Source: Natator depressus (lineage: Eukaryota). From it: a DNA stretch of 64,000 bases. This document shows, in pieces, positions 9,097 to 49,260 of the stretch. A program made the translations under genes and the position numbers. Below the pieces are notes generated by a model. The model saw nothing but the letters and a program-made list of their open reading frames with translations, searched no databases and was not told where the DNA came from. The number at the start of each line of letters is the position of its first letter. Within the stretch, counting starts at the first letter, position 1. The DNA is taken from NCBI RefSeq assembly GCF_965152275.1, contig NC_134234.1, forward strand, positions 39,458,920-39,522,919, in the 5' to 3' direction.

Positions 9097-11560
9097 CATA
9101 GAATCATAGAATATCATGGTTGGAAGGGACCTCAGGAGGTCATCTAGCCCAACCCCCTGCTCAAAGCAGGACCAATCCCTGATTAAATCATCCCAGCCAG
9201 GGCTTTGTCAAGCCTGACCTTAAAAACTTCTCGGGAAGGAGATTCCACCACCTCCCTAGGTAACGCATTCCAGTGTTTCACCACCCGCATAACGAAAAAG
9301 TTTTTCCTAATATCCAACCTAAATCTCCCCCACTGCAACTTGAGACCATTACTCCTTGTTCTGTCATCTGCTACCACTGAGAACAGTCTAGATCCATCCT
9401 CTTTGGAACCCCCTTTCAGGTAGTTGAAAGCAGCTATCAAATCCCCCCTCATTCTTCTCTTCCGTAGACTAAACATCCCCAGTTCCCTCAGCCTCTCCTC
9501 ATAAGTCATGTGTTCCAGTCCCCTAATCATTTTTGTTGCCCTCCGCTGGACTCTTTCCAATTTTTCCAAATCCTTCTTGTAGTGTAGGGCCCAAAACTGG
9601 ACACAGTACTCCAGATGAGGCCTCACCAATGTCGAATAGAGGGGAACGATCACGTCCCTCAATCTGCTGGCAATGCCCCTACTTATACATCCCAAAATGC
9701 CATTGGCCTTCTTGGCAACAAGGGCACACTGTTGACTCATATCCAACTTCTTGTCCACTGTAACCCCTAGGTCTTTTTCTGCAGAACTGCTGCCGAGCCA
9801 TTTGGTCCCTAGTCTGTAGCGGTGCATGGGATTCTTCCGTCCTAACTGCAGGACTCTGCACTCATCCTTGTTGAACCTCATCAGATTTTTTTTGGCCCAA
9901 TCCTTCAATTTGTCTAGGTCCCTCTGTATCCTATCCCTACCCTCCAGCATATCTACCACTCCTCCCAGTTTAGTGTCATCTGCAAACTTGCTGAGGGTGC
10001 AATCCACACCATCCTCCAGATCATTTATGAAGATATTGAACAAAACCGGCCCCAGGACCGACCTCTGGGGCACTCCACTTGATACCGGCTGCCAACTAGA
10101 CATGGAGCCATTGATCACTACCTGTTGAGCCCCACAATCTAGCCAGCTTTCTATCCACCTTATAGTCCATTCATCCAGCTCATACTTCTTTAACTTGCTG
10201 GCAAGAATACTGTGGGAGACCGTGTCAAAAGCTTTGCTAAAGTCAAGGAACAACACGTCCAGTGCTTTCCCTTCATCCACAGAGCCAGTTATCTCGTCAT
10301 AGAAGGCAATTAGATTAGTCAGGCATGACTTGCCCTTGCTGAATCCATGCTGACTGTTCCTGATCACTTTCCTCTCCTCTAAGTGCTTCCGAATTGATTC
10401 CTTGAGGACCTGCTCCATGATTTTTCCAGGGACTGAGGTGAGGCTGACTGGCCTGTAGTTCCCAGGATCCTCCTTCTTCCCTTTTTTAAAGATGGGCACT
10501 ACATTAGCCTTTTTCCAGTCGTCCAGGACCTCCCCCGATCGCCATGAGTTTTCAAAGATAATGGCCAATGGCTCTGCAATCACATCCGCCAACTCCTTTA
10601 GCACTCTCGGATGCAACGCATCCAGCTTCATGGACTTGTGCTCGTCCAGCTTTTCTAAATAATCCTGAACCACTTCTTTCTCCACAGAGGGCTGGTCACC
10701 TTCTCCCCATGCTGTGCTGCCCAGTGCAGTAGTCTGGGAACTGACCTTGTTCGTGAAGACAGAGGCAAAAAAAGCATTGAGTACATTAGCTTTTTCCACA
10801 TCCTCTGTCACTAGGTTGCCTCCCTCATTCAGTAAGGGGCCCACACTTTCCTTGACTTTCTTCTTGTTGCCAACATACCTGAAGAAACCCTTCTTGTTAC
10901 TCTTAACATCTCTTGCTAGCTGCAACTCCAGATGTGATTTGGCCTTCCTGATTTCACTCCTGCAAGCCCGAGCAATATTTTATACTCATCCCTGGTCATT
11001 TGTCCAATCTTCCACTTCTTTTAAGCTTCTTTTTTGTATTTAAAAGCAGCAAGGATTTCACTGTTAAGCCAAGCTGGTCGCCTGCCATATTTACTATTCT
11101 TTCTACACATCAGGATGGTTTGTACCTGTAACCTCAATAAGGATTCTTTAAAATACAGCCAGCTCTCCTGGACTCCTTTCCCCCTCATGTTATTCTCCCA
11201 GGGGATCTTGCCCATCAGTTCCCTGAGGGAGTCAAAGTCTGCTTTTCTGAAGTCCAGGGTCTGTATTCTGCTGCTCTCCTTTCTTCCTTGTGTTAGGATC
11301 CTGAACTCGACCATTTCATGGTCACTGCCTCCCAGGTTCCCATCCACTTTTGCTTCCCCTACTAAGTCTTCCCGGTTTGTGAGCAGCAGGTCAAGAAGAG
11401 CTCTGCCCCTAGTTGGTTCCTCCAGCACTTGCACCAGGAAATTGTCCCCTACATTTTCCAAAAACTTCCTGGATTGCCTGTGCACCGCTGTATTGCTCAG
11501 TATGGATGCTCTTATGATCTTATGAAGAATCCACGCCCCTGAGCACTGCAGTTATGCCAA
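9097..11560 (-). mobile_element. CR1-family LINE, minus strand, tail-to-tail with the previous copy
   Basis: The 580-aa ORF 9183-10925 (-) is a complete CR1 RT domain (FADDTKL...YLEYCVQFW...). ORF 11021-11485 (-) is the upstream ORF2 linker. The 3' UTR at 9097-9182 carries the ...gggctagatgacctcctgaggtcccttccaacc... tail motif. Confidence 0.8.
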
Positions 11561-17470: not shown

Positions 17471-18526
17471 TGTTCCCTTCCCCCCACCCACCCTACTCAC
17501 TTCCTGATTGACTGCAGACTATATAGTAAAACTTGAGTTCTGCTTAGCTATACCTTAACCAATCATTTTACTGAAATTTAACTAACCAATCCTAACATAC
17601 TGTAACATGATTATTTAACCAATTATATCCCACCACCTTAATTAGTTTACACCCAGCAAAATTAATTATACAGCAGACAGAAACAATCACAGAACCAGAC
17701 AGAGATTATACAGACAACAATAGGGAAATGGGGACTACAGTGATAGAACAAACACAGAAATGAGGATTTCACATCCCAGCTATTGATAAGTGAGTTCTTG
17801 CCAGACAGGATGCTATCAAACTAAGTTTCCTTTTACATCTTTTAGGCACTTCCCTTTCTGTGGAGGCAGTAGGCATTATCAGGACAGGATTGTATTCCTA
17901 ACAGCCCAATAGCACCTTATTTCAATGTGACTAGTTCGGAATGTGAGGATGTGACCGTTCACTTCCCAGCTTATGGCTGCCTCTGCTGCTTAGCCAAAGG
18001 CCTTAGCCTAAGAACAGGGCCTCAGACTGTCACAGTAAGAGAAAGCTCTTACACTGGCAGACAGTGATTCTGATTCTTTCTTTTATACCTCTATAACTAG
18101 CTAAGTGATAAGAATACACCTAAATTCTTAGAGTATAGGCCTTTACAGACAGGCCTGAATATCTATATCCTAACACCATATACATGTTGTTTTAAAATAG
18201 CACATACCCTTGTTTTCAGCATTTTTGCTGTTTTAATAAAGAACCTCAGCCTCATTTGAAGGAAGCTTTTAAAAAGGCAGCTGACCTATGTGGGATAAGT
18301 GAGCACATTTCCGACATGCTTGATGGCCCAGACTGATTTGTAAAATATAAACTTACCTGGGTGGAAGGTGGTTCTTCTCATTTTAGGAATTTGTTGGGGC
18401 TACCTCTGTAGTTTCTGACGTTGAGGTGATGTTAGCTGACCTCTGCTGGGGATGATGCAGCAGCGTTCTCTTTCAATACTTAAGCCATTGCTTTTTGGAA
18501 AAATTCTAAAAGAACTGAGGCCTGGT

Positions 18527-19113
18527 CTACACTACATAGTGAGGTCGACGTAAGGCCGCTAGTTATGACCTAATTATATCAGTGTACACACTAAAGCCTT
18601 GTCCCGCCGATGTAAGTGCCCAACTACATCGACATACTAACTCCACATCCACAAGAGGCATAGGGCTTATGTCAGTATAGTTAGGGCAATGCAGCATCTG
18701 TGTAGACACCTCATTACTTACACTGGCTGTTGGCCATTTCAGGGCTCCATGCTGGATCCATGAAATTGATGAAAAAACTCAGGGAGGTGAGAAGCCCGGG
18801 TGGCTCACTCCCGCTCCCAGTGGGGAGGCGAGAAGCTGAGAATCCGGTGGGCAGCTGGCCTCAGCTCCCAGTTGGGAGGCAAGAAGCCAAGCTGGCTCCT
18901 GGCGGGGAGCTGCACCTGGCTCTCAGTCCTGGCTCTCGGTCCCCAACACTATCCCTCTTCAGTCTCTGGAAGTGTTCCTGGTGAGGATGTGCACCATTGA
19001 CAGGAGAGTAGTGTGGACATCAGTGACTGCAGTAATTGCTGAGGTGGCTGTAAGTCAACCTAACAGGTCAACTTAAGTCTGTAGTGTAGACTGTAGTGTA
19101 GATTCCCTGAGAG
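18527..19113. mobile_element. Non-autonomous Harbinger-type MITE
   Basis: Ends ggtctacactacatag ... ctgtagtgtagactgtagtgtagat. This is the same GGTCTACACTAC terminal repeat as Harbinger copy 1. The interior is GC-rich and non-coding. Confidence 0.5.
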
Positions 19114-25020: not shown

Positions 25021-26883
25021 TTCCATCCAGGGTCTTATACCATGCTTTCATGCTGCTGTTTCCCTCTCTTGGGAATATATACTTTATATATACTGCGCAT
25101 ATATATATATGCTTACTTATTAACAAGGAATGTACAGAAAACAAAAAATAGTTTCTTTGCTTATAGCCCCAAGCCTCTTTGGGTCTAGTGCTAGCTAAAG
25201 ATCTCTCTCCCTTGCTTTTTCAGGGTTTTATACCATACTTACATTACAGGCTGCTGCTTCACTTTTTTGTGCCATGTCTACACTACCAATTTGTGTCAAC
25301 AGAAGTGATGCTGACATAATAAAAATCATAATTTCGTGTTCATTCTTGCTCCCTCTGTTGGCAGATCATGTCCACGGTGTGGCCTCCCTCCGATCCACAG
25401 GGGGAGGAACCACTTTATGTGCCTGGGTGGGTGGAGTCAGGCCGGGTTCACCCTTCTCACTGGAAATTGAGAGACAGGACGGGAAGTACAAAAAGAGGAA
25501 CCTTCAGCTCAGTTGGAGCCGAGCCAGGGCAGGAGACAGGCGAATATTGCTCGCTGCTGGCCTCTTACTCTGCTGCTGAACCAAGCGGTGCCCTGACCCC
25601 AGAGGAGACCAAGTCCAAGGAGGAGCTGCTGATGGCTGTGTACCCCCAGGAGATGGACGACACCTACAGAGCCCAGGTACCAAACAAAGAGGTAGTAGAA
25701 AGTGGCCCAGGGACACTAGACCATAGTCTGGTTGCATGGTTGCCTGAATCCAGGTCTGTGTGTTTCAGGCGGATCCCCACTGACCCACTGACAGAACATT
25801 CTGCCACTTATAGCCTGGGGCTGAGAACCAGTGGAGTAGGGAGGGCCTGGGTTCCCCTACCCCCTGGTGTTAAACCTACCCCAGGGGTGGCAGCCTCCCC
25901 ACCATAGGTGAAAAGGCCTGTGTTTGTCTGCTGTCTGCCAGATCTGAGACAACAATCTGTGTAGTGCTCTGCCCTGCACGAGGGCCAGAGCCTATAGCCT
26001 GCTTGTTAGCTCTGCTGTGCTGGAGAGCCAGAGCCCACAGACGGTTTGGTGTGCCACCCCACCGAGAGGGTCAGGGCATTAGCACCTGATTTGCTAATTC
26101 CCCTGATGTTAAGCAGTGACCCCAGTGACATAATGAGGCAGTGTGGCTTCTCTCCGACCCAGATGGGGAGGGACAACCACCACCGCACTACATACCCCTT
26201 TTTGACCCAAGCAGCTAATCAAAATTTGAGGCCCTGGTATTCCAGTTGGGGGTAGAAATTGATGAAAGACTCTGCATCAAAAAATATCCTGATCTTGCTT
26301 ATTAACAAGGAATGTATGAGGTCCTGGGTCCCCGAAGGTAGGAGGAACCAGGAAACAACAAACAGTTTCTTTGCTTATAGCCCCAAGCCTCCTTGGGTCT
26401 AGTGCTAGCTAAAGAGCTCTCTCCCTAGTTTTTTCCATGGTCTTATACCATGCTTTCAGGCTGCTGCTTCCCTTTCTTGCTGTTTGTCTCTTTGGGATTG
26501 GGTATGAACGCACCCTACAATTAACATAACTGGCAGGATATGTCAAGCAGGAGCCCCTGCCCACCCAAGACAAAAGCATCTGTGAACCCACCCAGGGAAC
26601 ATGCATACACTCCTTGCCGAAACCCCATTCACCACTCAGTCCAAAACTCCTGGATGGGTTCACAACCCCTTATGGCTTAGGTGAGGAGGTCGTGCTTAAC
26701 TTACCCTGACAGTCATGTTAATTGTAAGAGCGCAGTCACATCTAATTTCAAAGATGTTTTAACTAAGCCCATAACAATACCTTCCCTTCCACCCTGCTAT
26801 ACACATCCTCACCCAAGATCCCACTATGGATAAGGTCCTGTGTAAATCATGATTTCATGGATTACATGGAAATCCATGAAACA

Positions 26884-28909: not shown

Positions 28910-30160
28910 TTGGATCCCGCACTGCTCTCCTATGCTCTGTTAACTGTCATGAAGACATTGCGGATGGCAGTGCAGTTAATCGTGAAGTTTCTAACTGAGG
29001 AAGACTCACAGGTGCCTGACGTTCTGCGTGATATGAATAGGAGCAACTTTAGATTGCTTTTGGCATTCACTGAGCAGGTGCATAGGATAGACCGTCACTT
29101 TTGGGCTCATGAAACAAGCACTGAATGGTGGGATCGCATCCTCATGCAGGTGTGGGATGATGAGCAGTGGCTATAGAACTTTCGGGTGCAGAAAGCCAGC
29201 TTCCTGGAACTATGCTTGGAGCTTGTCCCAGACATGCGGCTCAAGGACACCAGAATGAGAGCTGCCGTCTTGGTAGAAAAGCGTGTGGCAATTGCTGTGT
29301 GGAAGCTGGCAACTCCAGACTGCTACCAGTCAGTCATGAATCAATTTGGAGTGGGGAAGTTGACCGTTGGGGCTGCGTTAATGCAAGTGTGCAGGGCAAT
29401 AAATTGCATCCTGCTACGAAGGACTGTGACTCTGGGAAATGTGTGTGAAATAGTGGACAGCTTTGCAGAAATGGGGTTCCCTAACTGTGGAGGGGCGATA
29501 GATGGCACACGTATTCCAATTTTGGCACCAGACCACCTTGCGACGGAGTACATCAATAGGAAGGGATACTTCTCCATGGTGTTGCAAGCGTTTGTGGATC
29601 ACCATGGGCATTTCACTGACATCAGCATAGGGTGGTCTGGGAAGGTGCATGATGCACACATCTTCAGAAACAGCGGCCTCTACAGAAAGCTGCAAGCAGG
29701 GACTTTCTTTCCTAACCAGAAGATTGGGGGGGGAGGAGGGGGTGTTGAAATGCGCATAGTGATCCTGCGGGACTCTGCGTACCCCTTGCAGCTGTGGCTC
29801 ATGAAACCTTACACGGGACACTTGGACAGCAGTAAGGAGCAGTTCAACAACAGGCTCAATAGGTGCCGGATGACAACTGAATGTGCCTTTGGCAGATTAA
29901 AGGCACACTGGCGATGCCTTCATGGTGGGTTGGACCTCACTGAGGATAATATTCCTGTGGTCATAGCCATGTGCTGTATGTTGCATAATCTCTGTGAAGC
30001 TAAGGGTGACAGGTTTGCTCAGGAGTGGAGTGCTAAGGCAGACCGCTTGGCCGCTCATTTTGAGCAGCCAGATACCAGGGCTGTCAGAGGTGCACAGAGG
30101 GGAGCTATTCGAATCAGGGAGGCTGTGAGGCAGCACTTTGACAATGACCACCATTAATAT
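28910..30160 (+). pseudogene. Harbinger (HARBI1-like DDE_Tnp_4) transposase with a single in-frame TAG
   Basis: ORFs 28910-29176 and 29186-30157 are in the same frame and separated only by TAG at 29177-29179 (..DDEQWL*NFRVQKASF..). The second ORF has the HARBI1-like motifs GAIDGTHIPI, DAYPL and LHNLC. Total length is about 416 codons. Confidence 0.75.
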
Positions 30161-31727
30161 ATATCTGTGTCTGAGTTGCTTCAATGTTACATGCCATGTA
30201 GTTTTCTAGGGGGCAATAGTGACATTTGGAGCCTTATATTCCTGTAATAAAGTGATCAAAATGCCTGTGCATGTATTAGCAGTGCCTGCAATCTCACCTT
30301 GTAGAAAAAAATTAAAGATGATTTACCATTATAAAAGTTTGCTTTTATTGCACAAGAAACAGCGCGCACACAAACACACAGATGCTTGCCAGGAAAGGAG
30401 GAACCAGGGAAGGGCAGACTTTCACAGCTGCGTGGAGGTCCAGCTATCATTGTGAAAGTTGTCTGAGGAGGTGAAGTAAAGGGGAAACGAAGAATCCTGG
30501 AAGGTAGAAAGGAATGTGTGGGCGGAACTTGGGGGGCAGGGAAGAGAGTTCTGAATGTACTGCAGTGGAGATTGAGCACTGATCTGCTCAGTCTGCAGCA
30601 TTATTAAGGACTTCATCATCTGCATTTTCTCCTCCATTACTTTAATCATCAGCTCAGTAGCGTCCTTAACAAATGTGTAATTCTCTTTTCTGTCCTGCCC
30701 TTCAGCTTCACAGCATTCCTTTCATTCCCTTTTTTCTGCATTGGATCACTGCAGGACCTCCCGGAACATGTCTTCTTTGCTGCATCTTGAGCGCTTTCTT
30801 ATCTGGTGGAGACTCTCGGCCGGGGTGCGTGGGGCCTGAAGGCCACGTCTGGTGAAGCACAGGGTTACAATGCACAGAAGCAAGATTATTAAATTCACGC
30901 ACAGAATTGAAACATTTCTGTTAAATACACCTTTTACAACATTGCAATCACTTTCTCACTGACCCTAGCCAGGCACACATCTCTGCAAACACCCAAAGCA
31001 TTCTGAGTGTTGGTGTGGGGGCGGGGGGTCCACATGGAGAAAAGAGCACACACTCTTTGCAAGGGTCATGGTGCAGCATACTAGGGAACAAATTCTAAAA
31101 TTCTCCCACACTTTTCCACAGGCGGGAGTCATTCTAGCAGATATCTCACTGCTAAGGGTAAGCAGGGAAACGAGGATACTCCATGCTTGTGGCTTCTGCC
31201 CTGCTCCCTATGCTGCTCGCCTGTGTGCTGCTTTGGTCCCTGCACAAGTGATTGCCGAATGGTGCAGAAAAGTTTCCTACAATGGGGAAGGAACAAAGCT
31301 GCTCTGCCACGGAACCTTCAGCAGAGGATTACCGAGTACCTCTAGGAAACTTTTCTGGAGATCTCTCTGCAGGATTCCCATGAGATCTCAGCGTGCATCA
31401 ACACCCTGTTCCGCTGTACTGATTAGCTACACAGGGAAATGTCCATCTCACAGAAACACAGTCAGGCTCCCACATTTCTATGCCCTGAACCCACGTCTCC
31501 ACGACACAGGCCACAGCCACTTACCAGGAGTTTCATCTCCTGCTTCTTGCTCACCAGAGAGCAACTGCTGAGACTGGCTAGACACCTCTGGAGTGGAGAA
31601 CCGTTCCTGGCTGCCTGCCCCACCGGACGACCCAGCTGGGAGCTGCACATCCTCATCTAACTCCACCTCTTTATCAATAACTTCGTCCTTGGGTTAGGTC
31701 CTCTTTCTGCCACCACAGGGCTCTTGG

Positions 31728-32078
31728 CTATCCACCAAGGTTAGCGTCCAGCTCCTTATAGACCCAGCAGATCTTAGGTGCAGCACCAGAGCGACGGTTT
31801 GCCTCCCTCGCCTTATGGTACGCCTGCCTCAGCTCCTTTATTTTCGCTCTGTACTGCAGCGTGCCCTGATCACAGCCCTTTTCGCACAAGTCTCGAGAAA
31901 TGTGCCCATAGGTATCCCATTTCCTATGGCTTAAGGCAGCTGTGACTGCACAGCCTCCTCTCCCCATATGTTGATCAGATCCAACAGCTCTGCAGTGGTC
32001 CAAGCAGGAGAGCTTTTGCTGCGATAACCCACCATGGTCACCTGGGAAGATGCGGTGAGACCTCTTCACTCTGAGCAA
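31728..32078 (-). pseudogene. Myb/SANT-like (Harbinger partner protein) ORF fragment of copy 1
   Basis: KIKELRQAYHKAREANRRSGAAPKICWVYKELDANLG matches the Myb-like DNA-binding domain of Harbinger-associated proteins. It is homologous to the intact-looking gene at 41555-43202. The downstream part (30420-31700, -) is frameshifted. Confidence 0.55.
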
Positions 32079-32890
32079 ACAGGAAATGGAATTTCAAAAA
32101 TTCCCAGGGCTTCTAATGGGCAGGGGCGGATGGTTGTTTACCTGGCTGCGGGGCAGTGGAGTTCAAACTGCTGACCAGAGCAGTCAGAATGGGCATTGTG
32201 GGACACTTCCTGGAGGCCAATTAAAGAGATGAAATGAAGCATGGTGTCTACACTTGCATTTTGTCAACCAAAATTTAGAGGAAAAAGACATAAATCTCTC
32301 ATGAGGGTGGATGTATTTTGTCGCCAAAACCAGGCATTTTCCCTGACAAAAGTCACCTTGCAGTGTCTACACTGTTTGGGTCGACAAACAGCAATTTTGG
32401 TGACAAAACTTGGTAGTGTAGGCAAGGCCTTGCTGTTTGCCTCTTTGAGATTGGGTATGAATGCACTCTACAATTAACATGACTGTCATGATAAGTTAAG
32501 CAGGACCCACCCCTCATAAAACAAAAGCAGTTGTGAACCCACCCAGGGAACATACATATCAAAACAACATTCAGAATAACCCCATTAACCACTCAGTCCA
32601 AAACTTCTGGGTAGGTTCACACTCCTTTTGTCTTTGGGGGGCATTCTGCCAACCTTATCCTGACAGTCATGTTAATTGTAGAGTCCATTCACACCCAATT
32701 TCAAAGATGTTTTAATTTAGCCCATAACAAGGTTTCACCCAGCTCATAAGAATACCTTCCCTTTCACCCTGTTCTACAGGTCCTCAGCCAAGATCCCACA
32801 ATGGGTAAGATCCTGTATAAATCATGAGTTCATGAATTGCATTGAAATTGTGAAATACCTCACTATTAAAAATGTGCACCTTATTTCTAG

Positions 32891-38277: not shown

Positions 38278-40006
38278 AAGTCAGTCTAGATATCTCAAGA
38301 GATTCACAACGTTTGCGCCTGGCAGGCAATTCACCATGTGGTTCTCCTGGTCATCACAAACGCAACTATATTTCTAATAATTGAATCCTCCATTACTATT
38401 ACCAGTCTGTAACATACCAAGGCACAATCTAGACCAGTGGTCACCAACCGGTTGTTCTTCTTTGAGTAGTGTCCCTATGAGTGCTCCGCTGTAGGTGTAT
38501 GTGCGCTCTTGCGCCTCTAATCAGAGATTTTTGGTAGCAGTGTCCGTTGAGCCCATGCATGTGCTCTCCTTCCCTCCTGGTCTGGCACTGCAGGGGCGAA
38601 GCCCCCTCACTTCCTTCTCAACCGCCTTTGGCCTCAAACAGAGCGAGCAGTCATCCCTTCCTTATCTGTGTCATTAGCATAAGTAGTAGTCGTGTTTTTG
38701 TTTCTTTTGGTCTCCTTAATCGTTAGTGTTTCATTTTTATTTACTCCTTTGGGATTAAAGGAGAAAAAAAGAGAAAGAAAGAAAAAGAACTTTAGTTTCC
38801 TGCCCCGTCTGAGGGCACCCCCACCTCCCAGGCATTTAGTAGACTCTAAGTTTTTCAGTTTATTTTTTAAAAAAAAAGAAAATAAAAAGGAAAAGAAGAG
38901 AAGGAGTAAAGAAGACCTTTTTCTGCATTCCCCACTGCTAGAGGATGATAGCCCCCTGCCAAGGGGCATGCCTGGTTCTCCCTGCTCCAAGAGGTGCCTC
39001 TCCTACAAGGAGTCAATTCCTGTAATGGCCAGACACTCTTACTGTGTCTGGTACCTGGGAGAGCCTCACGGAAGTGCTTCACCTGCCACAGCTAAAACAG
39101 CAGTCTCGCAGGAACTGGGACCTGAAGTTAAAACTCCTCCTTATGGAGAAGGTACTTCAGTCTCCAGGGGACTCCGGGGTTGACCCCGGATCATCCCTGG
39201 AGCCTCTAAAGGTACGTCTACAGTACGAAATTATTTCGAAATTATTCTATTCAAATTTTTGGAAGCAATTTTATACATTTGGTCTTGTGTGTCCCCACTA
39301 AAGCACGTGAATTCGGTGGAGTGCATTCACAGTACCGAGGCTAGCATCGAATGTCAGAGCGGTGCACTGTGAGTAGCTATCCCACAGTTCCCGCAGTCCC
39401 CGCCGCCCATTTGAATTCTGGGTTAAGCTCCCAGTGCATGATGGGGCAAAAACATTCTCGCAGGTGTTTCTGGGTGTGTGTCATCAGTTGCTCCTCCCTC
39501 CGTGAAAGCTACGGCAGACAATCGTTTTGCGCCTTTTTGGTGTGCAGACACCATACTGCTTTCAGTAGATGGTGCAGTACGGTGCACTGCTTCTCTCCTA
39601 GTACTTTGAATCCACCTCGCATTTCCTCTTGTCTTTCTATGTAATCTCTATAAGTATCTACTCTTTCTATTCCTCATCAACCGCTTCCACTGCCAACTCT
39701 GCTTGGCCATCATGAACCGAGCAGCAGAGCTTCCACCGCCAGCTCTGCTCTCCCGCTCTTGCCGCGCTACCGAGCTTCTCCATGTTGTCTGTCTTGGATC
39801 CCGCCTCCGTGAAAGCTACAGAAGACAACCATTTCCCACCTTTTTTTGTTTATCGTGAACCAAACAGCACCTCTTCCGCTGCCACTCTGCTCTCCTACAT
39901 TTCATGCCCTTTTTCCAGGATTACCCGTGCAGGCGCCTTAGCGCAGCAAGCCGTGGAGCCGCTATAGTTTTGACCATTGTAAATACCTCGCCCATTATCC
40001 AGCAGT

Positions 40007-41408
40007 ATGTGCAGTACCTGCAAAACCAGGCGAGGAAGCAACAATAGCACGATTACTATACTGCTGAGGACATGGATCCAGACATTCTTAGAAGCACAGC
40101 ATGTGGCAATTGGGAGATCATGGTGGCGTTGGGCCAGGTTCATGCCGTGGAACGCTGATTCTGGGCCCGAGAAACAAGCACAGACTGGTGGGACCGCAAA
40201 GTGTTGCAGGTATGGGATGATTCCCATGGCTGCGAAACTTTCGTATGCATAGGGCCACTTTCATGGAACTTTGTGACTTGCTGTCCCCTGCCCTCAAGCA
40301 CAAAGACACCAAACTGAGAGCAGCCATCACAGTTGAGAAGCAAGTGGCCATAGCCCTGTGGAAGCTTGCAACGTCCAACAGCTACCGGTCAGTCGGGAAT
40401 CAGTTTGGAGTGGGCAAATGAGGGGAGAGGGATAGCTCAGTGGTTTGAGCATTGGCCTGCTAAACCCAGGGTTGTGAGTTCAATCGCTGAGGGGCCATTT
40501 AGGGATCTGGGGCAAAAAAAATTGGGGATTGGTCCTGCTTTGAGCAGGGGGTTGGACTAGATGACCTCCTGAGGTCCCTTCCAACTCTGATATTCTATGA
40601 TTCTATGAAATCTACTGTGGGGGCTGCTGTGCTGCAAGTAGCCAATGCAGTCATTGACCAGCTGCTATCAAGGGTAGTGACTTTGGGAAATGTGCAGATC
40701 ATCGTGGATGGCTTTAATGCACTGAGGTTCCCTAACTATGGCGGGGCGATAGGTGGAACGCATATCCCTATCTTGGCCCCAGAGCATCGGGGTGGCCAGT
40801 GTGTAAACTGCAAGGGGTACCTTTCCATGGTGCTGCAAGCACTGGTGGATCACAAGGGACGTTTCACCGACATCAACGTGGGATGGCCGGGAAAGGTGCA
40901 TGACGCTCGCATCTTCAAGAACTCTAGTCTGTTTGAACAGCTGCAGGAGGGGACTTACTTCCCAGACCAGAAAATTACTGTTGGGGATGTTGAAATGCCT
41001 ATAATTATCCTCGGGGACCCAGCCTACCCCTTAATGCCATGGCTCATGAAGCCGTACACAGACACCCTGGACAGTAGTAAGGAGCAGTTCAACTATAGGC
41101 TGAGCAAGTGCGGAATGGAGTTAGAATGTGCTTTTGGATGTTTGAAAGTGCACTGGTGCAGTCTACTGACTTGGTTAGATCTCAGCACAACCAATATTCC
41201 AATCGTAATTGCTGCTTGTTGTGTGCTCCATAATATCTGTGAGAGTATGGGGGAGACGTTTATGGTGGGGTGGGAGGTTGAGACAACTCGCCTGGCAGCC
41301 AATTTCGCACAGCCAGACAACAGGGCAATTAGAAGAGCGCAGCAGGGCGCACTGCACATCAGAGAAGCTTTGAAAGCCAGTTTCATGACTGGCTGGGGTA
41401 CGGTGTGA
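40007..41408 (+). pseudogene. Harbinger transposase, copy 2, disrupted
   Basis: It is homologous to 28910-30160 (..FWARETSTDWWDRKVLQVWDDS.., ..PWLRNFRMHRATFMELC.., GAIGGTHIPILAPEHRG..). It has a stop near 40140, a frameshift near 40225, and a SINE insertion at 40414-40608 that splits the ORF. Confidence 0.8.
40414..40608 (+). mobile_element. tRNA-derived SINE with a CR1-type tail, inserted in the transposase ORF
   Basis: tRNA-like head gggatagctcagtggtttgagcattggcctgctaaacccagggttgtgagttcaatc (A and B boxes). The tail ggttggactagatgacctcctgaggtcccttccaactctgatattctatgattctatg is shared with the CR1 3' UTRs at 9097-9182. Confidence 0.8.
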
Positions 41409-41554
41409 CAGTTGTGTTTGTTTCTCTTGAAGTTACCCGCCCCCTATATATATGAAGGGAAATAAAGTCACAATTGTTTAAAAAACGTTCTTTATTATTT
41501 GTTGCACAACACATTGAGAGAAATCAGAAGATAGACCCGGGGGCGGTAATTGGG

Positions 41555-43202
41555 TTAAGGGGGTGGAGCAGGAGGGAAGGACAAGTCCAGAAACCAAATC
41601 AAAATTTCGGATATGCCAGCTTTCTGCTGCTTGTGCAATCGTCTGGGGTGGAGTGTGTGGGTCCCTGTAGCCTTCCCGCCGCCCCCCCGTGTTCTTGGGC
41701 GCCTGGTTGAAGAGGCTATGGAACTTGGGGAGGAGGGAGGGCGGTTATACAGGGGCTGCAGCAGCAGTCTGTGGGCTTGCTGCCTTTTCCGCATTAGATC
41801 CACCATATAGCGGAGCATGTCAGTTTGCTCCCCCATGAGCTTGACCATAGCATCCTGCCTGCTCTCATCGCATGCACCCCTCCTCTCTTCCTGTTCTTTT
41901 AACACTTTACAGGACTCTGCAATTGTTTGCCTCCACACATTCAGCTGGGCCCTATCAGTGTGGGAGGACTGCATGAGCTCGGCGAACATGTCGTCCCGAG
42001 TTTGTTTTTTCCACCTTCTAATCTGGACCAGCCTCTGGGACGGAGTAGATAGGGGCCGCATTGAAATATTTGCACCTGCGGGAGGAGAAAAAGGGAGGGT
42101 AGTATTTTAAAAGATTAATTTTAGAGAACAAAGGTGACACTCTTTCCCAGTGAAACAGGCAATTCATAGTACACAGCACATGTTCTTTCTGTACAAGGTC
42201 ACATTTTGCCTCTTACACTGAAGTGCCTGCCACTTTGGTGTGAGTAAGCCATCACACATGGCCGGGCAACAGAATTCAGCTTGCAGGCAGCCATGTTAAG
42301 CCCTAGGGGCACACAGGTTCTGCTTCTTCCAAATTCATTTCAATGCTTTCAAACTGCCGGGCCCCCTTTCCCATAGCAAGCAATTCCTGGTGGGTTTGCC
42401 ATATAAAAGGAGGGCCTGTGGGCTTTCTGGGATGATTGCTTCACACAACACACACCCTCACCCACTGCATGGCTCCGATGAGGCTCTGAGCAGGGATGAG
42501 CCATTTAAACTAAACGCGAACAGCCCCGTGCGGCTGGGTTTTCCCCCACCCCTCACCGCGTGGCTCCATTCAGGCTCTCACTCACCAGAAATGCCTTCTC
42601 CAGGGTCATGGTCTGGGAGCCCACCTTGGGAGTCGGGGGAGGCTATTGGGTCCAGCGTTAAGAATAATTCCTGGCTAGGGTTGGGAAACGGATTCCCCAC
42701 TTGCCACCTGTGCACTGTCATCCTCCTCCTCCTCCTCCAATAACTCATCCTCCTCGCTCTGTGCAACTCCCCCCTTGCAGGTGTCCATGGACAGTGGTGG
42801 GGTAGTGGTGGCATCACCCCCCATAATAGCATGCAGTTCACGATAGAAGCGACATATATGGGGCTGTGACCCAGAGTGCCTGTTCACCTCCCTGGCTTTT
42901 TGGTATGCTTGCCTGAGCTCCTTGATTTTTGTACGACATTGCTCTGTGTCCCTGGAGTAGCCTCTTTCCGTCATGGCCCTGGAGACTTTAGTGTACGTAT
43001 TTGCGTTTCTTTTTTTGGAACATAGTTCTGCCATAACAGATTCATATCCCCAACATGCAATGAGATCCAGTACCTCCCGTTCAGACCATGCTGGAGCTCT
43101 TCTGCGAATCCGGGACTGCATGGTCTCTTGTGATGGTGGAGTCTGTATGGTCACCTGTGATGGTGGACTGTGCTGATGGTCACCTGTGCTGATGGTGACC
43201 AA
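41555..43202 (-). CDS. Harbinger-associated Myb/SANT-like DNA-binding protein gene, apparently two exons
   Basis: ORF 42675-43202 (-) includes WSEREVLDLIACWG...CRTKIKELRQAYQKAREVNRHSGSQPHICRFYRELHAIMG (Myb-like) and an acidic tail. ORF 41555-42061 (-) encodes the C-terminal part. Putative intron: donor CAA|gtgggg near 42650 and acceptor tttctcctcccgcag near 42060. Confidence 0.5.
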
Positions 43203-46200
43203 ACAGGAAATTAAATTAAAAAGTTCCCTGAGCTTTTACTGCCTACCTGGCTAGTGCATCAGAGTTGAGAGTGTTGTCCAGAGCGGTCACAAGGGAGCAT
43301 TCTGGGATATCTCCCTGAAGCCAATATCGTTGAATTGCGTCCACAGTACCTGTAACCCAGAACTGCGATCTCGATTTTAGCGCTACTCCACTTGCCAAGG
43401 TGGAGTACAGAAATCGGATTAAAGAGCCCTTTAAATCAAAAACACCGGTTTGGTTGTGTGGACGGAATCCATTTTATTTCAAATTAACTCGGCTAATTCC
43501 GAAATAACCATGTACTGTAGACCAGGCCTAACTTCAAAGGGGATAAAGTCATGAAAAAACACAGCAGACCCCCTGTAAAGGCTCATAAAAAGAGGCTCCG
43601 AGTTGTTGGTCAGCCAGAGGGACTCCCCAATGCAGTCACCTCAGTACCAACTGCACCAGCAACTCTGAAGCACGGTACCGAGAAGGGGGCCTTCACTATG
43701 AGCTCTGCTCTGCAGCACCAGAGTAGCCAGGGGCTTTGGCAGTCAGGCTCTAAGGCAAGGGTACCGCCCCCTAAGGAGACAGACAATTACTGTACCGTCT
43801 CTAAAAGAGCGGCACAGAGAAAACCTGTGGTACTAGGTATGACAAAACTCCTACCCTATGGAGTGCTCTGCACCTTCCCAACCATCAGTGCTGACAACAT
43901 ACCACAGAGTGAGCCCATGGTACCACATGAGCTCTGGTACGCTTGAGACCTGTTTCCCTGGTACCCAGGGAAAGACAATTACTGTACCATCTCTAAAAGA
44001 GTGGCACCAACACACCTTTCTGTACCGGGCGCAACAAAACTCTCATTTATGGAGTGCTCTGCACCTTCTCAACCATCGGTACCGACAAAGTACCATGGAC
44101 ACTCCTCCGCAGTACCCAGTGAGCCCAGGGTACTGCATGAGCTCTGTTACCCTGGAGACCTGATGGTTCGGGAAGTACTGCAATCCCCATTACTCGGTAC
44201 CAGGGCCCCGGTACCAAGCACATCCCGGCACCTGGAATCGCTCTTAGCACCAGGTCGTGTACCACCAATCTCCCAGTTAGTGCCGCGCTTACCCAGTGAC
44301 GAGTCTGACAGTGCCCAGGAGGAGGTCATTTCCCTGGCCTCTCATCGTGGCCCACCATCACAATACAAGGGCCCTCCCCAATTCCATCGAGCCAACTCAC
44401 AATTGTGATACGGGCCCCCTGGAGTAACCCCACCGCCCATGCCTGCCCTCCTCCCCACCACCCCGCCCCCATGGCCATATTGCAATCCTTGGGCAACATA
44501 CACACATGTTGCGGCTGTCCAGTGTCTCTCAGAGAGAGTCCACCAGATGGTCTGCTACAGCCTGGCTGTCCAGAGTCCCTGAGCCAGGGGAAGAGGAAGC
44601 TTTTTCAGAACAGGAAGAAAGACTCGAAGGTGAAGTTACCCGCTCCAGAAAACTTCTCCTCATCTCCACCAGATGAGGCTGCAATGCCTCCCCCGCCATC
44701 ACTAGGTGATGATTTTAAGAACTTTCTGTATCTTACCAAGAGGGTGGCAGATGAGCTGCAGAGTCCCCTACATGAGATGGCAGATACCCATCACAAGTTG
44801 GTGGATATTCTGCACACCTCTTCCTCATGCAGAGTTGCCTTCCCAGTTAATTCTAGATCCTACCAAAGTCATCCAGCAGACACCAGCCTCCATCACACCA
44901 ACCAGCAACAGAGCCAAAAATTAATTAAAAAAAAAATACTACATCCCTCCCAAAGAGGCAAACTTCCTGTTTCAACATCTGCAACCCAACTCCATCATAG
45001 TGGGTGTGGTTAATGCACAAAGCAAGCAACATAATGCCAAGTCGACCCCATACGCTCGGGCTTAGCAGGATGGCATGTTTGTCGGCGACATTACCGTTTA
45101 GAGTAATGAATTACCAAACTGTCATGGTCAAATAAAATTTTATTAATTATGGGAAACTCAATGCGTTTCTGGAGCATTTACTGGAGACAAAAAAGGAGCA
45201 GTTTCACACCATTCTTAGACAGGGTCAGTTAATAGCCAGACTGGTGCTAGAGACAGCACTGGATGTAGCTGATACAGCAGCCCGCCCAGTCTCCATGACA
45301 GTGGTACTGAGGCAGGCTTCTTGGCTACACCTTTCTGGATTTCCCAAAGAGCTGCAGAAGACTTCCTGTTTGAAGGGCCCAAACTCTTTGCAGAGAAGAC
45401 AGATTCTTCTCTCCACATCCTGAAGGATTCCCAGATCACATTACACTCCCTAGGAAACTACACTGTGGGACAGAAGAGAAGATATACCTCTCAGCCACAG
45501 CACAGATCACAATCTCCTCAATACCCACCATCTCAGTGCTGTTATTAGCCCTGGTGTAAGAGAACCAGAGCTCAAAAGCAGAAGCAGTCCACGACCTCTG
45601 AAACCGCCTCTTCTAAGCGCTTTTGACGGGTTGGTCAAGGGCCTGAACAATTATACCTTTCAACATCAGCTGCCACCTACACACTTGTCACCTTCAGAAG
45701 TCACCTGGCCCTATTTCACAGCAGTTGTGAGAATATCCCCTCTGACAGATGGATCCTGGAGATTATTTTGAAGAGTTACACCATTCAATTCATGTCCCTC
45801 CCCATTCCAACCCTCCTTCCCCGTCCCCCTTCAGGGACCCTTCTCATTAGAACCTACTTCATCTGGAAATATATCATTTGTTATGCCTAGGGGCCATTGA
45901 ACCAGTTCCGGTTCAACTCAGGAGCAAGGGGATTTACTCTCATTTTCTGATCCACAAGGCGAAGGGAGGTTGGAGGCCCATTCTAGATCTAAGGGCATTA
46001 AACAAATATGGGAAGGTGCAGACATTCAAGGTGGTGACACTAGCAGCCATTATTCCAGCTCTAGAGCAAGAAGATTTATCTCCAGCCCTCGACCTACAAG
46101 ATGTGTACTTCCATATCTCAATACAACCATCGTACAGGAGATTTTCTACGATTTACCTTTGGTGCAAGACCATTATCAGCACAGACTGCTCCACCCAGGG

Positions 46201-48939
46201 TATTCTCCAAGGTTCTCTTCATTGTAGCAGTGCACTAACCCCGGTACAGCAACTGGAGTTTATCAGCATCAACCTTGATACAGTACAAGCGAGAGCATTC
46301 CTCCCACTACACAGACTCGCCACCCTGGGACAAATGCTTCCCTAATAGGCTGGGGAGCTCACCTACACAACCACAAGGTTTAGGGCAAATGGCCATCCAC
46401 AGACGTCCATATCACTCTTTGGGAGCTAAGGGCTGTTAGGAATGCCTGTGCACACTTCCTGCCTTTCATCAAGAACACCCACATGAAAGGCATGATGGAC
46501 TTAACATGACCTGTATGTTTTACATAAATCGCCAAGGGTGTGCCAGATCTCTCTCCCTCTGCAAGGAAGCACTCAAACTTTGTAATTGATGCACCCATCA
46601 CAATGTGCTCATCTCAGCTGTCTATCTACCAGGGATACAGAACATGACAGCCAACTGTCTCAGTCAGAATTTTTGTCACGACCATGAGTGGGTACTAAAC
46701 TCAGAGGTGCTTCAAGATATATTCGCCCTTTGGGGAACTCTGACTATGGACCTCTTTGCTACTTCCCAGAACAAAAAAGGTGCTCATTACTGCTCCAGGG
46801 CTGGCCTGGGGAAACATTCACTGGGAGACACCCTCATCAGTTTCCTCTTCTATCCAAGGTCCTGTTAAACATTCAGCGAGACAAAGCAAGAGTTATCCTG
46901 ATTCCTCCTCCTTGCCATGACAAGTCTGGCTCCCTTACCTGACACAGATGGCAATATGCCCTCCTGTTCCTCTTTGGCCCATTCCTCACCTTCTCTCTCA
47001 AAACAATGGGCTGATCCTTCACCCCAGCCTGCGGATTCTCCACCTCCAAGCTTGGCTCCTTCTTAGTTCCAAGGCTTAGAGGCAGAATGCTCTGACGAGC
47101 TGAAAGACATGTTGCTACACAGCCAAAAGTTGACCACCCCACATACTTACTTACAAAATGGAAACGATTCCAAGTTTGTTGTCATTCTAAACACATAGAC
47201 CCAACCTCATCTTCCCTCCCTCTGATTTGACACTACATTTTAGACCTCAAGAGGTCAGCACTCTCTCACAGCTCCCTTAAGGTACATCTCACAGTGAAAA
47301 TGGCATTCCACTGCCAGGTAGACAGATTCTTGGTGTTTGCTCACCCGCTGATGTGTAGATTCCTTAAGGGCATTGGGAATCTCTTCCTGCATCAGCCTGG
47401 GATCTTAATCTAGTTCTCAGGGCTTTGACTAGACCTCCCTTTGAGTCCATGGCAACTTGCTCTCTCTTACATCTGTCCATGAAAACAGCATTTCCAATTG
47501 CCATTACCTCAGCTAGGCACATAGGAGAAAAAGCGGTCCTGATGGCATACCCACCATTCACGGCCTTTTTTAAAGACAAAGTAACCCTAAGGCCATATCC
47601 CAAGTTTCTCCCTACTTTCTCTGCACTTTCCATATGAATCAACAGATTCATCTCCCTGTTTTTTCCCAAAACCGCATTGTGATAACAGGAAGACAATTCT
47701 GCATATGCTGCATGTTAGAAGGACATTAGCATTGTGCTTGGACAGAACTAAGGACTTTAGGAAATCCCCTAAATTCTTCCTTTCGTCCACAGAAAGATCC
47801 AAAAGCTCTGTGAGATTGGCTCAAAGACTATCCAAATGGGTCTCTGGTTGCATTAATCACTGTTATCAAGGGTGGAATCTGCTTCCATCCAGAGTCCATG
47901 CGCACTCCACAAGGTCAATTTCTACCTCAGTCACATTACTTAAAGATATCCCTATCGCAGTAATCTGTAGAGCAACGACTTGGGCCTCTGCCCATACTTT
48001 TGCAGAACATTATGCAATCACTTAAGATTTGGCCCCCAACGCCATCTTTGACTCCACAGTACTCTCTGTAGTGACAGACTCCACTCCGAAGTCCCAGACT
48101 CCAGTGGTGGGTACTGCTCGGGAGTCACCTATAGTGGAGCACCCATAGGGATATTACTCGAAGAAGAAGAGGAAGTTTCTCACTTTGTGCAGTAATAATG
48201 GTTCTTCGAGATGTCTGTCCCTGTGGGTGCTCCACAACCAGCCCTCCTCCCCAATATTTTGGAGTTCTCTATAGGGCTCTGCAGTGGAAAGAGAAGTGAG
48301 GGGACTTCGCCCGCGCAACGCTAGATAGCCTCGAGGCAGACCACGAGGGAGGGAGAGCACATATGTGGGCTCAACTGACACTGCTACCAAAAATCTCCAA
48401 TTAGAGGCACAGGGGCACACATACACCTACAGTGGAGCACCCTTAGGGACAGACATCTCGAAGAACCATCGTTACTGCACAAAGTGAGTAATTTCCTCAT
48501 TGCAATTGACTGGTCGATCCTGGAGACTCTCCCAGTCGATCACGATCTCTAGGCGCTAAAAGCCTGGTGGTGTAGCGGGGCTGCCGCTAAGGCAGGCTCT
48601 CTGCCTGCCCCGGCCCCATGCCGCTCCCGGAAGTGGCCAGCACACCCCCACAGCCCGGGGAAGGGGAAGGTGGGCACGGGTCTCTGCACACTGCCCCTAT
48701 TTGCAGGCACCGCCCCTGCAGCTCCCATTGACCAGGAATGTGGAACGGTAGCCAGTGGGAGCTGCAGTGGCAGTGTCTGCAGACGGGCAGTATGCGTACC
48801 CACGTGCCCCCCACCCCAGGGGCCGCAGGGGCGCACTGGCCCCTTCCGGGAGCAGCATGGGGCCAGGGCAGGGAGGGAGTCTGCCTTAGCCCCGCTGCAC
48901 CACCGACCGGGAGCCACCCGAGGTAAGTGCCACCCGGTG

Positions 48940-49260
48940 GGAGCCCACACCCCAACCCTCCTCCTGGAGCCAGCACCCCATACCGCCTCCTGCAACCAAA
49001 CCCCCTCCTGCACCCCAAGCCTCGGCCCCAGCCCTGAGCCCTGTCTCAGAGCCAGCAGGCCATACCCCCTCCTGCACCCCAACACTCTGCCCCAGTCAGG
49101 AGCCCCCTCCTGCACCCAAACTCTCTGCCAGAGCTTGTACCCCTCACTCCCTCCTGCACCCCAATCCCCTGCTCCAGGCTCAGCCTGGAGCCCCCTTCCA
49201 CACCACAAACCCCTTGGCTCCAGCCCAGACCCCGCACCCCCTCCCGAACCCTAACCCCCT
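48940..49260. repeat. GC-rich minisatellite, unit about 50-60 bp
   Basis: cccctcctgcaccccaa(c/t)(c/a)c(t/c)ctgcccca-type units are repeated. The overlapping long ORFs on both strands are artefacts of low complexity. Confidence 0.75.

Follow-up and report, generated by a model that had tools for sequence, protein, structure and literature searches.

A decayed PIF/Harbinger copy nested in a DIRS-like element of Natator depressus, with a Myb-like gene that appears to carry both an intron and a frameshift

The stretch of Natator depressus DNA analysed here (64,000 nucleotides, nt; NCBI RefSeq assembly GCF_965152275.1, contig NC_134234.1, positions 39,458,920 to 39,522,919 of the forward strand; hereafter the window, with positions counted from its first letter) contains a transposon of the PIF/Harbinger superfamily at 39210-43528. 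We are highly confident that this is an old, dead turtle copy that sits in a resident DIRS-like element, was later hit by a short interspersed element (SINE) and has a Myb-like gene divided by an intron and a frameshift together. An earlier note on this DNA had placed two open blocks of the Myb-like gene on the minus strand, and both open reading frames (ORFs) are exactly there, at 42675-43202 (175 amino acids, aa) and 41555-42061 (168 aa). That note had also held that removal of an intron is enough to restore the frame, but the proposed splice skips an inserted A at 42682 as well. In contrast, its claim that the gene contains a spliceosomal intron agrees with the gene models of four annotated paralogues, which all share it, and the Myb-like gene of this family is predicted to have one real intron of this kind. 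The parts of the gene are the following.

42586 to 43148, minus strand: Myb-like exon 1 (pseudogene), which encodes Myb_DNA-bind_4; its end is set by the annotated paralogues and by a tblastn high-scoring pair ending at 42584
42076 to 42585, minus strand: predicted intron of the Myb-like gene (phase 1, GT-AG, 510 nt); donor CTG/GTGAGT, acceptor ttctcctcccgcag/GT (here and below the slash in a splice site marks the exon border)
41555 to 42075, minus strand: Myb-like exon 2, with the conserved C-terminal SPSQRLVQIRR..RTRDDMF..TDRAQLN.WRQ
42675 to 42682, minus strand: disabling lesion, a +1 insertion (A at 42682) that is missing from six paralogues, plus the premature TAG to which it gives rise (42677-42675)
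42699 to 42701, minus strand: donor CAA/GT proposed in the earlier note and rejected here; its CAAGTGGGG string is coding in the annotated paralogues

The position of the intron comes from four annotated genes whose exons were reconstructed from their genomic loci: P0001, P0002 and P0003 of Caretta, which belong to the same family as the window copy, and P0027 of Lepidochelys, from a subfamily that is only 54% identical in protein. Each of them admits just one GT-AG solution, a lone phase-1 intron of 512-587 nt located at ...GEGTS/G... and bounded by a donor TCTG/gtgagtg and by an acceptor that reads ...ctcc(c/t)gcag or ccaccag. The window retains both family signals; its exon 1 reaches to 42586 and its exon 2 begins with 42075, so that a GT...AG interval (42585-42076) is found at the position of the relatives and with their phase. 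The acceptor that the earlier note had picked (tttctcctcccgcag/GT, AG at 42077-42076) is present and is the same as that of the annotated paralogues. Furthermore, all aligned relatives carry SGESVFP-PSQELFLTLEPIASP.SQG.LPDHDPGEGTS-GANVSM.PLSTPSQRL, and window positions 42688-42586 code for the stretch FP..SQELF to GEGTS, in a frame unlike that of the first open block and within the intron of the earlier note. Partner genes with introns are already known from rice Ping ORF1 (PMC4055405) and from a Harbinger MADF gene of C. inopinata (bioRxiv 10.64898/2026.05.26.728016); the earlier view that an intron is expected for animal Harbingers in general found no further backing than these two cases. 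For annotation, the correct structure of the Myb-like gene of this family would be one phase-1 intron after ...GEGTS.

The frameshift is private to the window copy. At the site of the lesion the window reads GTTTCCCAACCCTAG and six paralogues read GTTTTCC-CCCCTAG, a net +1 in the window alone, and tblastn switches frame between residues 1-174 of P0001 and its residues 158-191, which fall on 42688-42584. The earlier note had set a frameshift and an intron against each other as alternatives; in the paralogue alignment the frameshift is indeed there, but an absence of the intron is not. The string CAA/gtgggg that it took as donor does exist in the window, with an exon end at 42701, but it is exonic in the paralogues. 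We rejected a donor at 42701/42700, which lies 115 nt upstream of the true one at 42586/42585 and would remove 38 codons kept by all relatives. It restores the frame because the jump skips the one-base insertion at 42682, and any phase-1 GT upstream of this lesion, once joined to the true acceptor, does the same. The first open block has 22 GT dinucleotides and 9 of them are in the required phase 1; moreover, at the seven variable positions of the donor consensus the CAAGTGGGG site matches 4/7, whereas the family donor CTGGTGAGT (CTG/GTGAGT) matches 6/7. The frame-restoring donor is thus no better than chance and is an artefact of seeking a GT past a frameshift. The case calls for caution, as chance frame-restoring GTs near the end of an ORF are common (nine here) and can mask a frameshift.

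The window copy evolves by neutral decay, because its distance from the consensus of seven copies is much the same in exons, intron and flanks (exon 1, 5.4%; intron, 6.0%; other columns, that is, flanks and exon 2, 5.4%) and because its private coding changes, 38 nonsynonymous and 18 synonymous, resemble those of other copies; the slower exons that would point to selection and function are not seen. The family start codon reads ATA (43148-43146), the next ATG being at 43121-43119, and after canonical splicing the Myb-like ORF is still closed by the TAG at 42677-42675. This TAG is 89 nt upstream of the canonical exon junction and, from the 50-55-nt rule, the transcript would therefore be expected to be a target of nonsense-mediated decay. 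In exon 2 the reading frame of the tail past ~41690 varies among copies at a poly-G run; this frame change (41684-41688) was considered as a further lesion and dropped, as copies and subfamilies disagree and the ancestral frame is unclear. We see no support for a gene that is still expressed or functional: the exons are as diverged as intron and flanks, the start codon is ATA and the partner transposase is destroyed. Because of the +1 insertion and stop, the lost start codon and the wrecked transposase, the copy can be counted as a pseudogene, one that would make neither protein.

The limits of the element were set by comparison with seven paralogous loci (L001-L007) taken from annotated turtle genomes, together with its terminal inverted repeats (TIRs) and target site duplication (TSD).

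39210 to 43528: Harbinger (PIF/Harbinger superfamily), 4319 bp, the later 188-bp SINE included
39207 to 39209: left TSD copy TAA; paralogue similarity ends at 39210 and TAA is repeated past the right end
43529 to 43531: right TSD copy TAA, directly beyond the right end of the Harbinger
39210 to 39257, plus strand: left (transposase-side) TIR, perfect core GTCTACAGTAC at 39216-39226
43481 to 43528, minus strand: right (Myb-side) TIR, core GTACTGTAGAC at 43512-43522 and minus-strand terminus GGCCTGGTCTACAGTAC

A DDE_Tnp_4 remnant, a Myb/SANT-like gene, TIRs and a 3-bp TSD mark this region as a Harbinger copy, as had been proposed. The proposed span (39213-43526) was right as to the element, but its ends have to be moved to 39210 and 43528, where the similarity to six paralogues with common termini stops in the alignment and where the TAA duplication begins. 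Both TIR cores of the earlier description, GTCTACAGTAC and GTACTGTAGAC, were found; the perfect core is 11 bp long and is embedded, according to an inverted-repeat search, in 42-nt arms that are 74% complementary. The outer 6 nt of the two TIRs are unlike (AGGTAC at the left vs GGCCTG at the right), an asymmetry which is equally present in the paralogues, and TIRs of this type are common to multiple copies. The window Harbinger is 84-90% identical to L001, L002, L004, L005, L006, and L007, and 70-86% identical to the L003 subfamily. PIF/Harbinger elements are known for a 3-bp TSD (PMC4482050), and the TAA/TAA of the window fits the TWA form; elsewhere in the family we found TCA/TCA in L005 and TGA/TTA or TAA/TTA in other copies. 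The second gene expected of this superfamily is a DNA-binding protein of Myb/SANT-like (trihelix or MADF) type. The first open block of the Myb-like gene contains Myb_DNA-bind_4 (PF13837, E 1.3e-19; also PF10545, E 2.6e-05) in Pfam, and among solved structures the GT-1 trihelix domain comes nearest in sequence (E 3e-4). A search of a 5.8-billion-protein collection with the conceptual Myb-like protein gave 880 relatives; among the best 120 of the 880, all are from turtles (Caretta, Chrysemys, Natator, Lepidochelys and others), the top identity is 83% and no protein exceeds it. For the proteins P0033 and P0005 no locus is on record.

The other gene of the element runs on the opposite strand and has been damaged several times.

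39953 to 41408, plus strand: transposase pseudogene (DDE_Tnp_4), start GTG; stops, a frameshift, loss of an Asp and interruption by a SINE
40420 to 40607, plus strand: SINE-like insertion in the transposase gene, 188 bp; TSD AAAT at 40416-40419 and 40608-40611

The ORF at 40605-41408 (plus strand) matches PF13359 (DDE_Tnp_4) with E 1.8e-29 and PF04827 with E 4.2e-08 in Pfam, as befits a DDE transposase of the PIF type, and over 266 aa the window transposase is 78% identical to the intact one of L003. When the latter (429 aa) was used as tblastn query, it fell into three pieces in two frames with two in-frame stops; the frameshift is near 40227-40242. In addition, the first catalytic Asp has become Gly (GGT at 40752-40754; AIDGTH to AIGGTH), so an open transposase ORF with its DDE triad, as an autonomous copy would have, is lacking here. 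The SINE-like insertion is missing from every paralogue compared at that site, and the repeat occurs elsewhere, at 9097-9179 of the window (96% over 83 nt) and at several other turtle loci, with 90-97% identity overall. ARAGORN and Rfam (E <= 0.1) gave no tRNA or other RNA match to it in 39000-44000, which leaves a tRNA-like origin of the SINE unsupported. Between the two genes there are AATAAA signals that point towards one another, at 41461 on the plus strand and at about 41496-41491 on the minus strand.

We have also examined the host of the Harbinger, whose inverted terminal repeats (ITRs) are given below.

38470 to 38625: DIRS-like left ITR, 87% and 76% complementary to 48281-48451
48281 to 48451: DIRS-like right ITR, which pairs with the left one

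These repeats, of 115-155 nt, lie one on each side of the Harbinger and bracket it together with coding remnants, in agreement with the earlier note, which had seen the element as nested in a DIRS-like one. Between the ITRs and to the right of the Harbinger there are remnants of reverse transcriptase (RT) and RNase H which are 39-41% identical to Pelodiscus proteins with RVT_1 and RT_RNaseH domains, as expected for such a host. A C-terminal piece in the window is 41% identical (E 1e-44) to the Pogona protein P0126 and has HSTRS...HY motifs; the Phage_integrase matches of P0126 and of P0125 are below threshold in Pfam (E 0.0077 and 5e-4, respectively), and the relative of the gag remnant is LAP2alpha-like. 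No Pfam domain was found at threshold in the DIRS fragments of the window themselves, and the assignment to DIRS is therefore based on their relatives and on the ITRs. A protein search with the gag translation across the junction returned one 40% Chelonia relative and one weak match, with no empty site; in the search with the RT, RNase H and putative recombinase pieces the long matches reached at most 39-41%, higher identity being seen in short fragments only; and blastn of the rejoined DIRS sequence against all the turtle loci that we fetched found no DIRS copy in them. Two features of the host were recorded apart from these: a tandem duplication of ~192 bp in its gag-side region (43778-43952 and 43970-44162) and, at its right end, a 67-nt inverted pair (91%) at 48169-48235 and 48432-48498, which may correspond to the internal complementary region known from elements of DIRS1 type. 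Past the right end there is a GC-rich stretch (48549-49254) with long ORFs on both strands (143-219 aa).

According to the history that we favour, the Harbinger would have inserted at a TAA site in a resident DIRS-like retroelement, and the SINE would have entered the Harbinger afterwards. The order follows from the nesting, and the relative decay fits it: the ITR arms are 76-87% alike, the Harbinger is ~5.5% from its consensus and the SINE is 96% like its second copy in the window. The locus would thus record three layers of insertion, DIRS-like element, Harbinger and SINE. The active ancestor of the copy probably had two convergent genes, an intronless DDE transposase and a two-exon Myb/SANT (trihelix) partner whose single phase-1 intron would have been removed by the spliceosome. 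In characterised Harbingers such as Harbinger3_DR the Myb partner attaches to subterminal sites and recruits the transposase, and by analogy the Myb partner of the ancestor may have acted in the same way. At the transposase-side end of the window copy we noticed a 47-nt subterminal direct repeat with 81% identity (39492-39538 and 39799-39845), which could be a candidate binding-site repeat for the Myb-like protein.

Several points weigh against this explanation. The evidence for the intron consists of computational gene models from other turtles and of evolutionary signatures, and it is from these models and patterns of selection that we infer actual splicing. The empty site of the Harbinger (..GAGCCTC TAA CTTCAAAGG..) is a reconstruction, as no uninterrupted DIRS paralogue appeared in the searches above. 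The two TSD halves, which read TGA/TTA and TAA/TTA, mismatch at one base in two of the four two-ended paralogues; the copies concerned are L003 and L004. Finally, a 148-aa ORF that starts at the ATG at 43121 retains an intact Myb domain, so that a truncated product is possible.

The alternatives have to be judged against this background. If the Myb-like gene had no intron, the ancestral ORF would have been continuous and the gap of ~510 bp would be inserted or degenerated sequence with frameshifts. This reading could appeal to the computational nature of the paralogue models, but we regard it as highly unlikely. A GT..AG pair with a strong GTGAGT donor and a long polypyrimidine tract is found at the same points in 8/8 copies, and in the young L003 copy, which is otherwise intact and has an intronless transposase ORF of 429 aa, the Myb ORF is open only if spliced. 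Moreover, when subfamilies are compared, the ratio of nonsynonymous to synonymous substitution rates amounts to 0.37 in exon 1 and 0.49 in exon 2, indicative of purifying selection in the latter. The segment between them, by contrast, is of unequal length (516 vs 587 nt), shows 48% identity when an alignment is forced and is interrupted by 3-11 stops in each frame; that is, the flanking exons are conserved as coding sequence and the intron is not. The introns of Ping ORF1 (PMC4055405) and of the MADF gene of C. inopinata (bioRxiv 10.64898/2026.05.26.728016) point in the same direction. The gene structure of the earlier note has two intact exons joined from 42701/42700 to 42076/42075 over a 625-nt intron, an open product of ~314 aa and perhaps expression. 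Its acceptor is genuine, and the GT at 42700-42699 is in the right phase and yields an open frame when joined to it. Nevertheless, we consider it very improbable in view of the exonic CAAGTGGGG motif in the annotated paralogues, the loss of 38 codons conserved across all relatives, the nine chance phase-1 GTs with a consensus match of 4/7 against 6/7 at the donor retained downstream, the neutral evolution of the copy and the lack of any protein more than 83% identical to the product among those best 120 matches.

It has also to be considered that the 148-aa exon-1 ORF is expressed, either as a competitor or repressor that only binds DNA at Harbinger ends or as a nascent domesticated gene. Myb_DNA-bind_4 is complete in this ORF, and domestication of Myb-like genes from Harbingers is a recurrent event in vertebrates (PMC9392472). 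This reading is very doubtful, though, as exon 1 is as diverged as intron and flanks, the 38:18 ratio of nonsynonymous to synonymous changes is that of other dead copies, the stop 89 nt before the junction predicts nonsense-mediated decay by the 50-55-nt rule, and an exact-product look-up found no gene on record for the truncated ORF. Taken together, we see very little chance that the broken copy yields any product, whether by way of a cryptic donor at 42700 that bypasses the frameshift or as the Myb-only ORF of 148 aa. If it did, either product would be a DNA-binding protein on Harbinger ends without transposase recruitment, that is, a self-encoded repressor or a first step towards domestication. 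An established domesticated host gene was ruled out, since the locus has TIRs and a TSD, adjoins a transposase, belongs to a multicopy family and decays neutrally. The preferred reading is that of a dead copy with a predicted intron and a frameshift in its Myb-like gene.

Other Harbinger sequences were found in the window and in the turtle loci. A second and more diverged Harbinger, copy 1 of the earlier note, is at 29099-32221; its transposase remnant (29099-30139) has 61% aa identity to that of the element described here, and its Myb-like pieces are at 32221-31731 and 30826-30503. Similar left-end motifs GCCATGTCTACACTACC are present at 25276 and 28573 (n=2). An element of ~590 bp that resembles a miniature inverted-repeat transposable element (18519-19107) has Harbinger-type ends GGCCTGGTCTACACTAC ... 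GTAGTGTAGATTCCC and is flanked by TGA/TGA (18516-18518 and 19108-19110), a TNA and not a strict TWA. L003 4641-9031 (Lepidochelys kempii OZ223595.1) is a complete Harbinger of a sister subfamily, with an intact two-exon Myb gene and an intact, intronless 429-aa transposase ORF (DDE_Tnp_4, E 1.9e-38); its Myb protein, P0027, falls in a 90%-identity cluster of 782 sequences. The L003 subfamily seems to have been active in sea turtles until recently, and such recent activity of a DNA transposon would be uncommon among amniotes. Many decayed Harbinger Myb-like ORFs are annotated as protein-coding in turtle genomes (L001-L007 and the protein relatives), and some are fused to host genes (RAD51 homolog 2, AP-1 sigma-3, and NGLY1 isoforms). 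The C-terminal tails of these annotated ORFs vary among copies by frameshifts, and because of this we suggest that mis-annotation derived from transposable elements is widespread in turtle genomes.

Finally, the locus can be compared with systems already described. Its host resembles the DIRS1-like tyrosine-recombinase retroelements in its ITRs, its RT/RNase H region and its LAP2alpha-like gag relative, and may also do so in the C-terminal piece with the putative recombinase relative, but its decay is advanced, with numerous stops and what seems to be a deletion in the RT. The Harbinger shares with Harbinger3_DR of zebrafish and with rice Ping/Pong the DDE transposase and Myb/SANT-like partner, the TIRs, a 3-bp TSD of TWA type and a partner gene that may hold introns (see Ping ORF1; PMC4055405), although the family of the window is a separate, sauropsid lineage. 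Over four copies its TSDs are TNA (TTA, TCA, TGA/TTA, TAA/TTA) and often flanked by C/G, and this is closer to the 'NuwaII' C-TNA-G group (PMC4482050) than to strict TWA, in a sample too small for assignment. The trihelix Myb/SANT-like domain PF13837 is also found in NAIF1, MSANTD1-4, and ZSCAN20/29-type proteins; domesticated Harbinger Myb-like genes are multi-exon genes derived from Harbinger partners (PMC9392472), but they occur as single-copy host genes, lack TIRs and TSDs and evolve under purifying selection, in contrast to the window locus with its TIRs, TSD, adjacent transposase remnant, multi-copy family and neutral decay. The window copy belongs to a known kind of element and has become a pseudogene; close relatives with the same intron are annotated in sea-turtle and pond-turtle genomes. 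It carries little biological weight, as turtle Harbingers, introns in the partner gene and nested insertions of transposable elements are already established. The closest comparison is with turtle Harbinger copies annotated as 'uncharacterized protein LOC...' or 'myb/SANT-like DNA-binding domain-containing protein 2', among them Caretta caretta LOC142072635 (P0001), LOC142069348 (P0002), and LOC125643196 (P0003), of the same family and with 84-90% DNA identity across the element: the annotated turtle copies share the termini, the convergent gene order, the single phase-1 intron and the same donor and acceptor, but their spliced Myb ORF is open. The window copy differs from them by its private +1 insertion, by the loss of the family start codon and by the SINE that interrupts its transposase.

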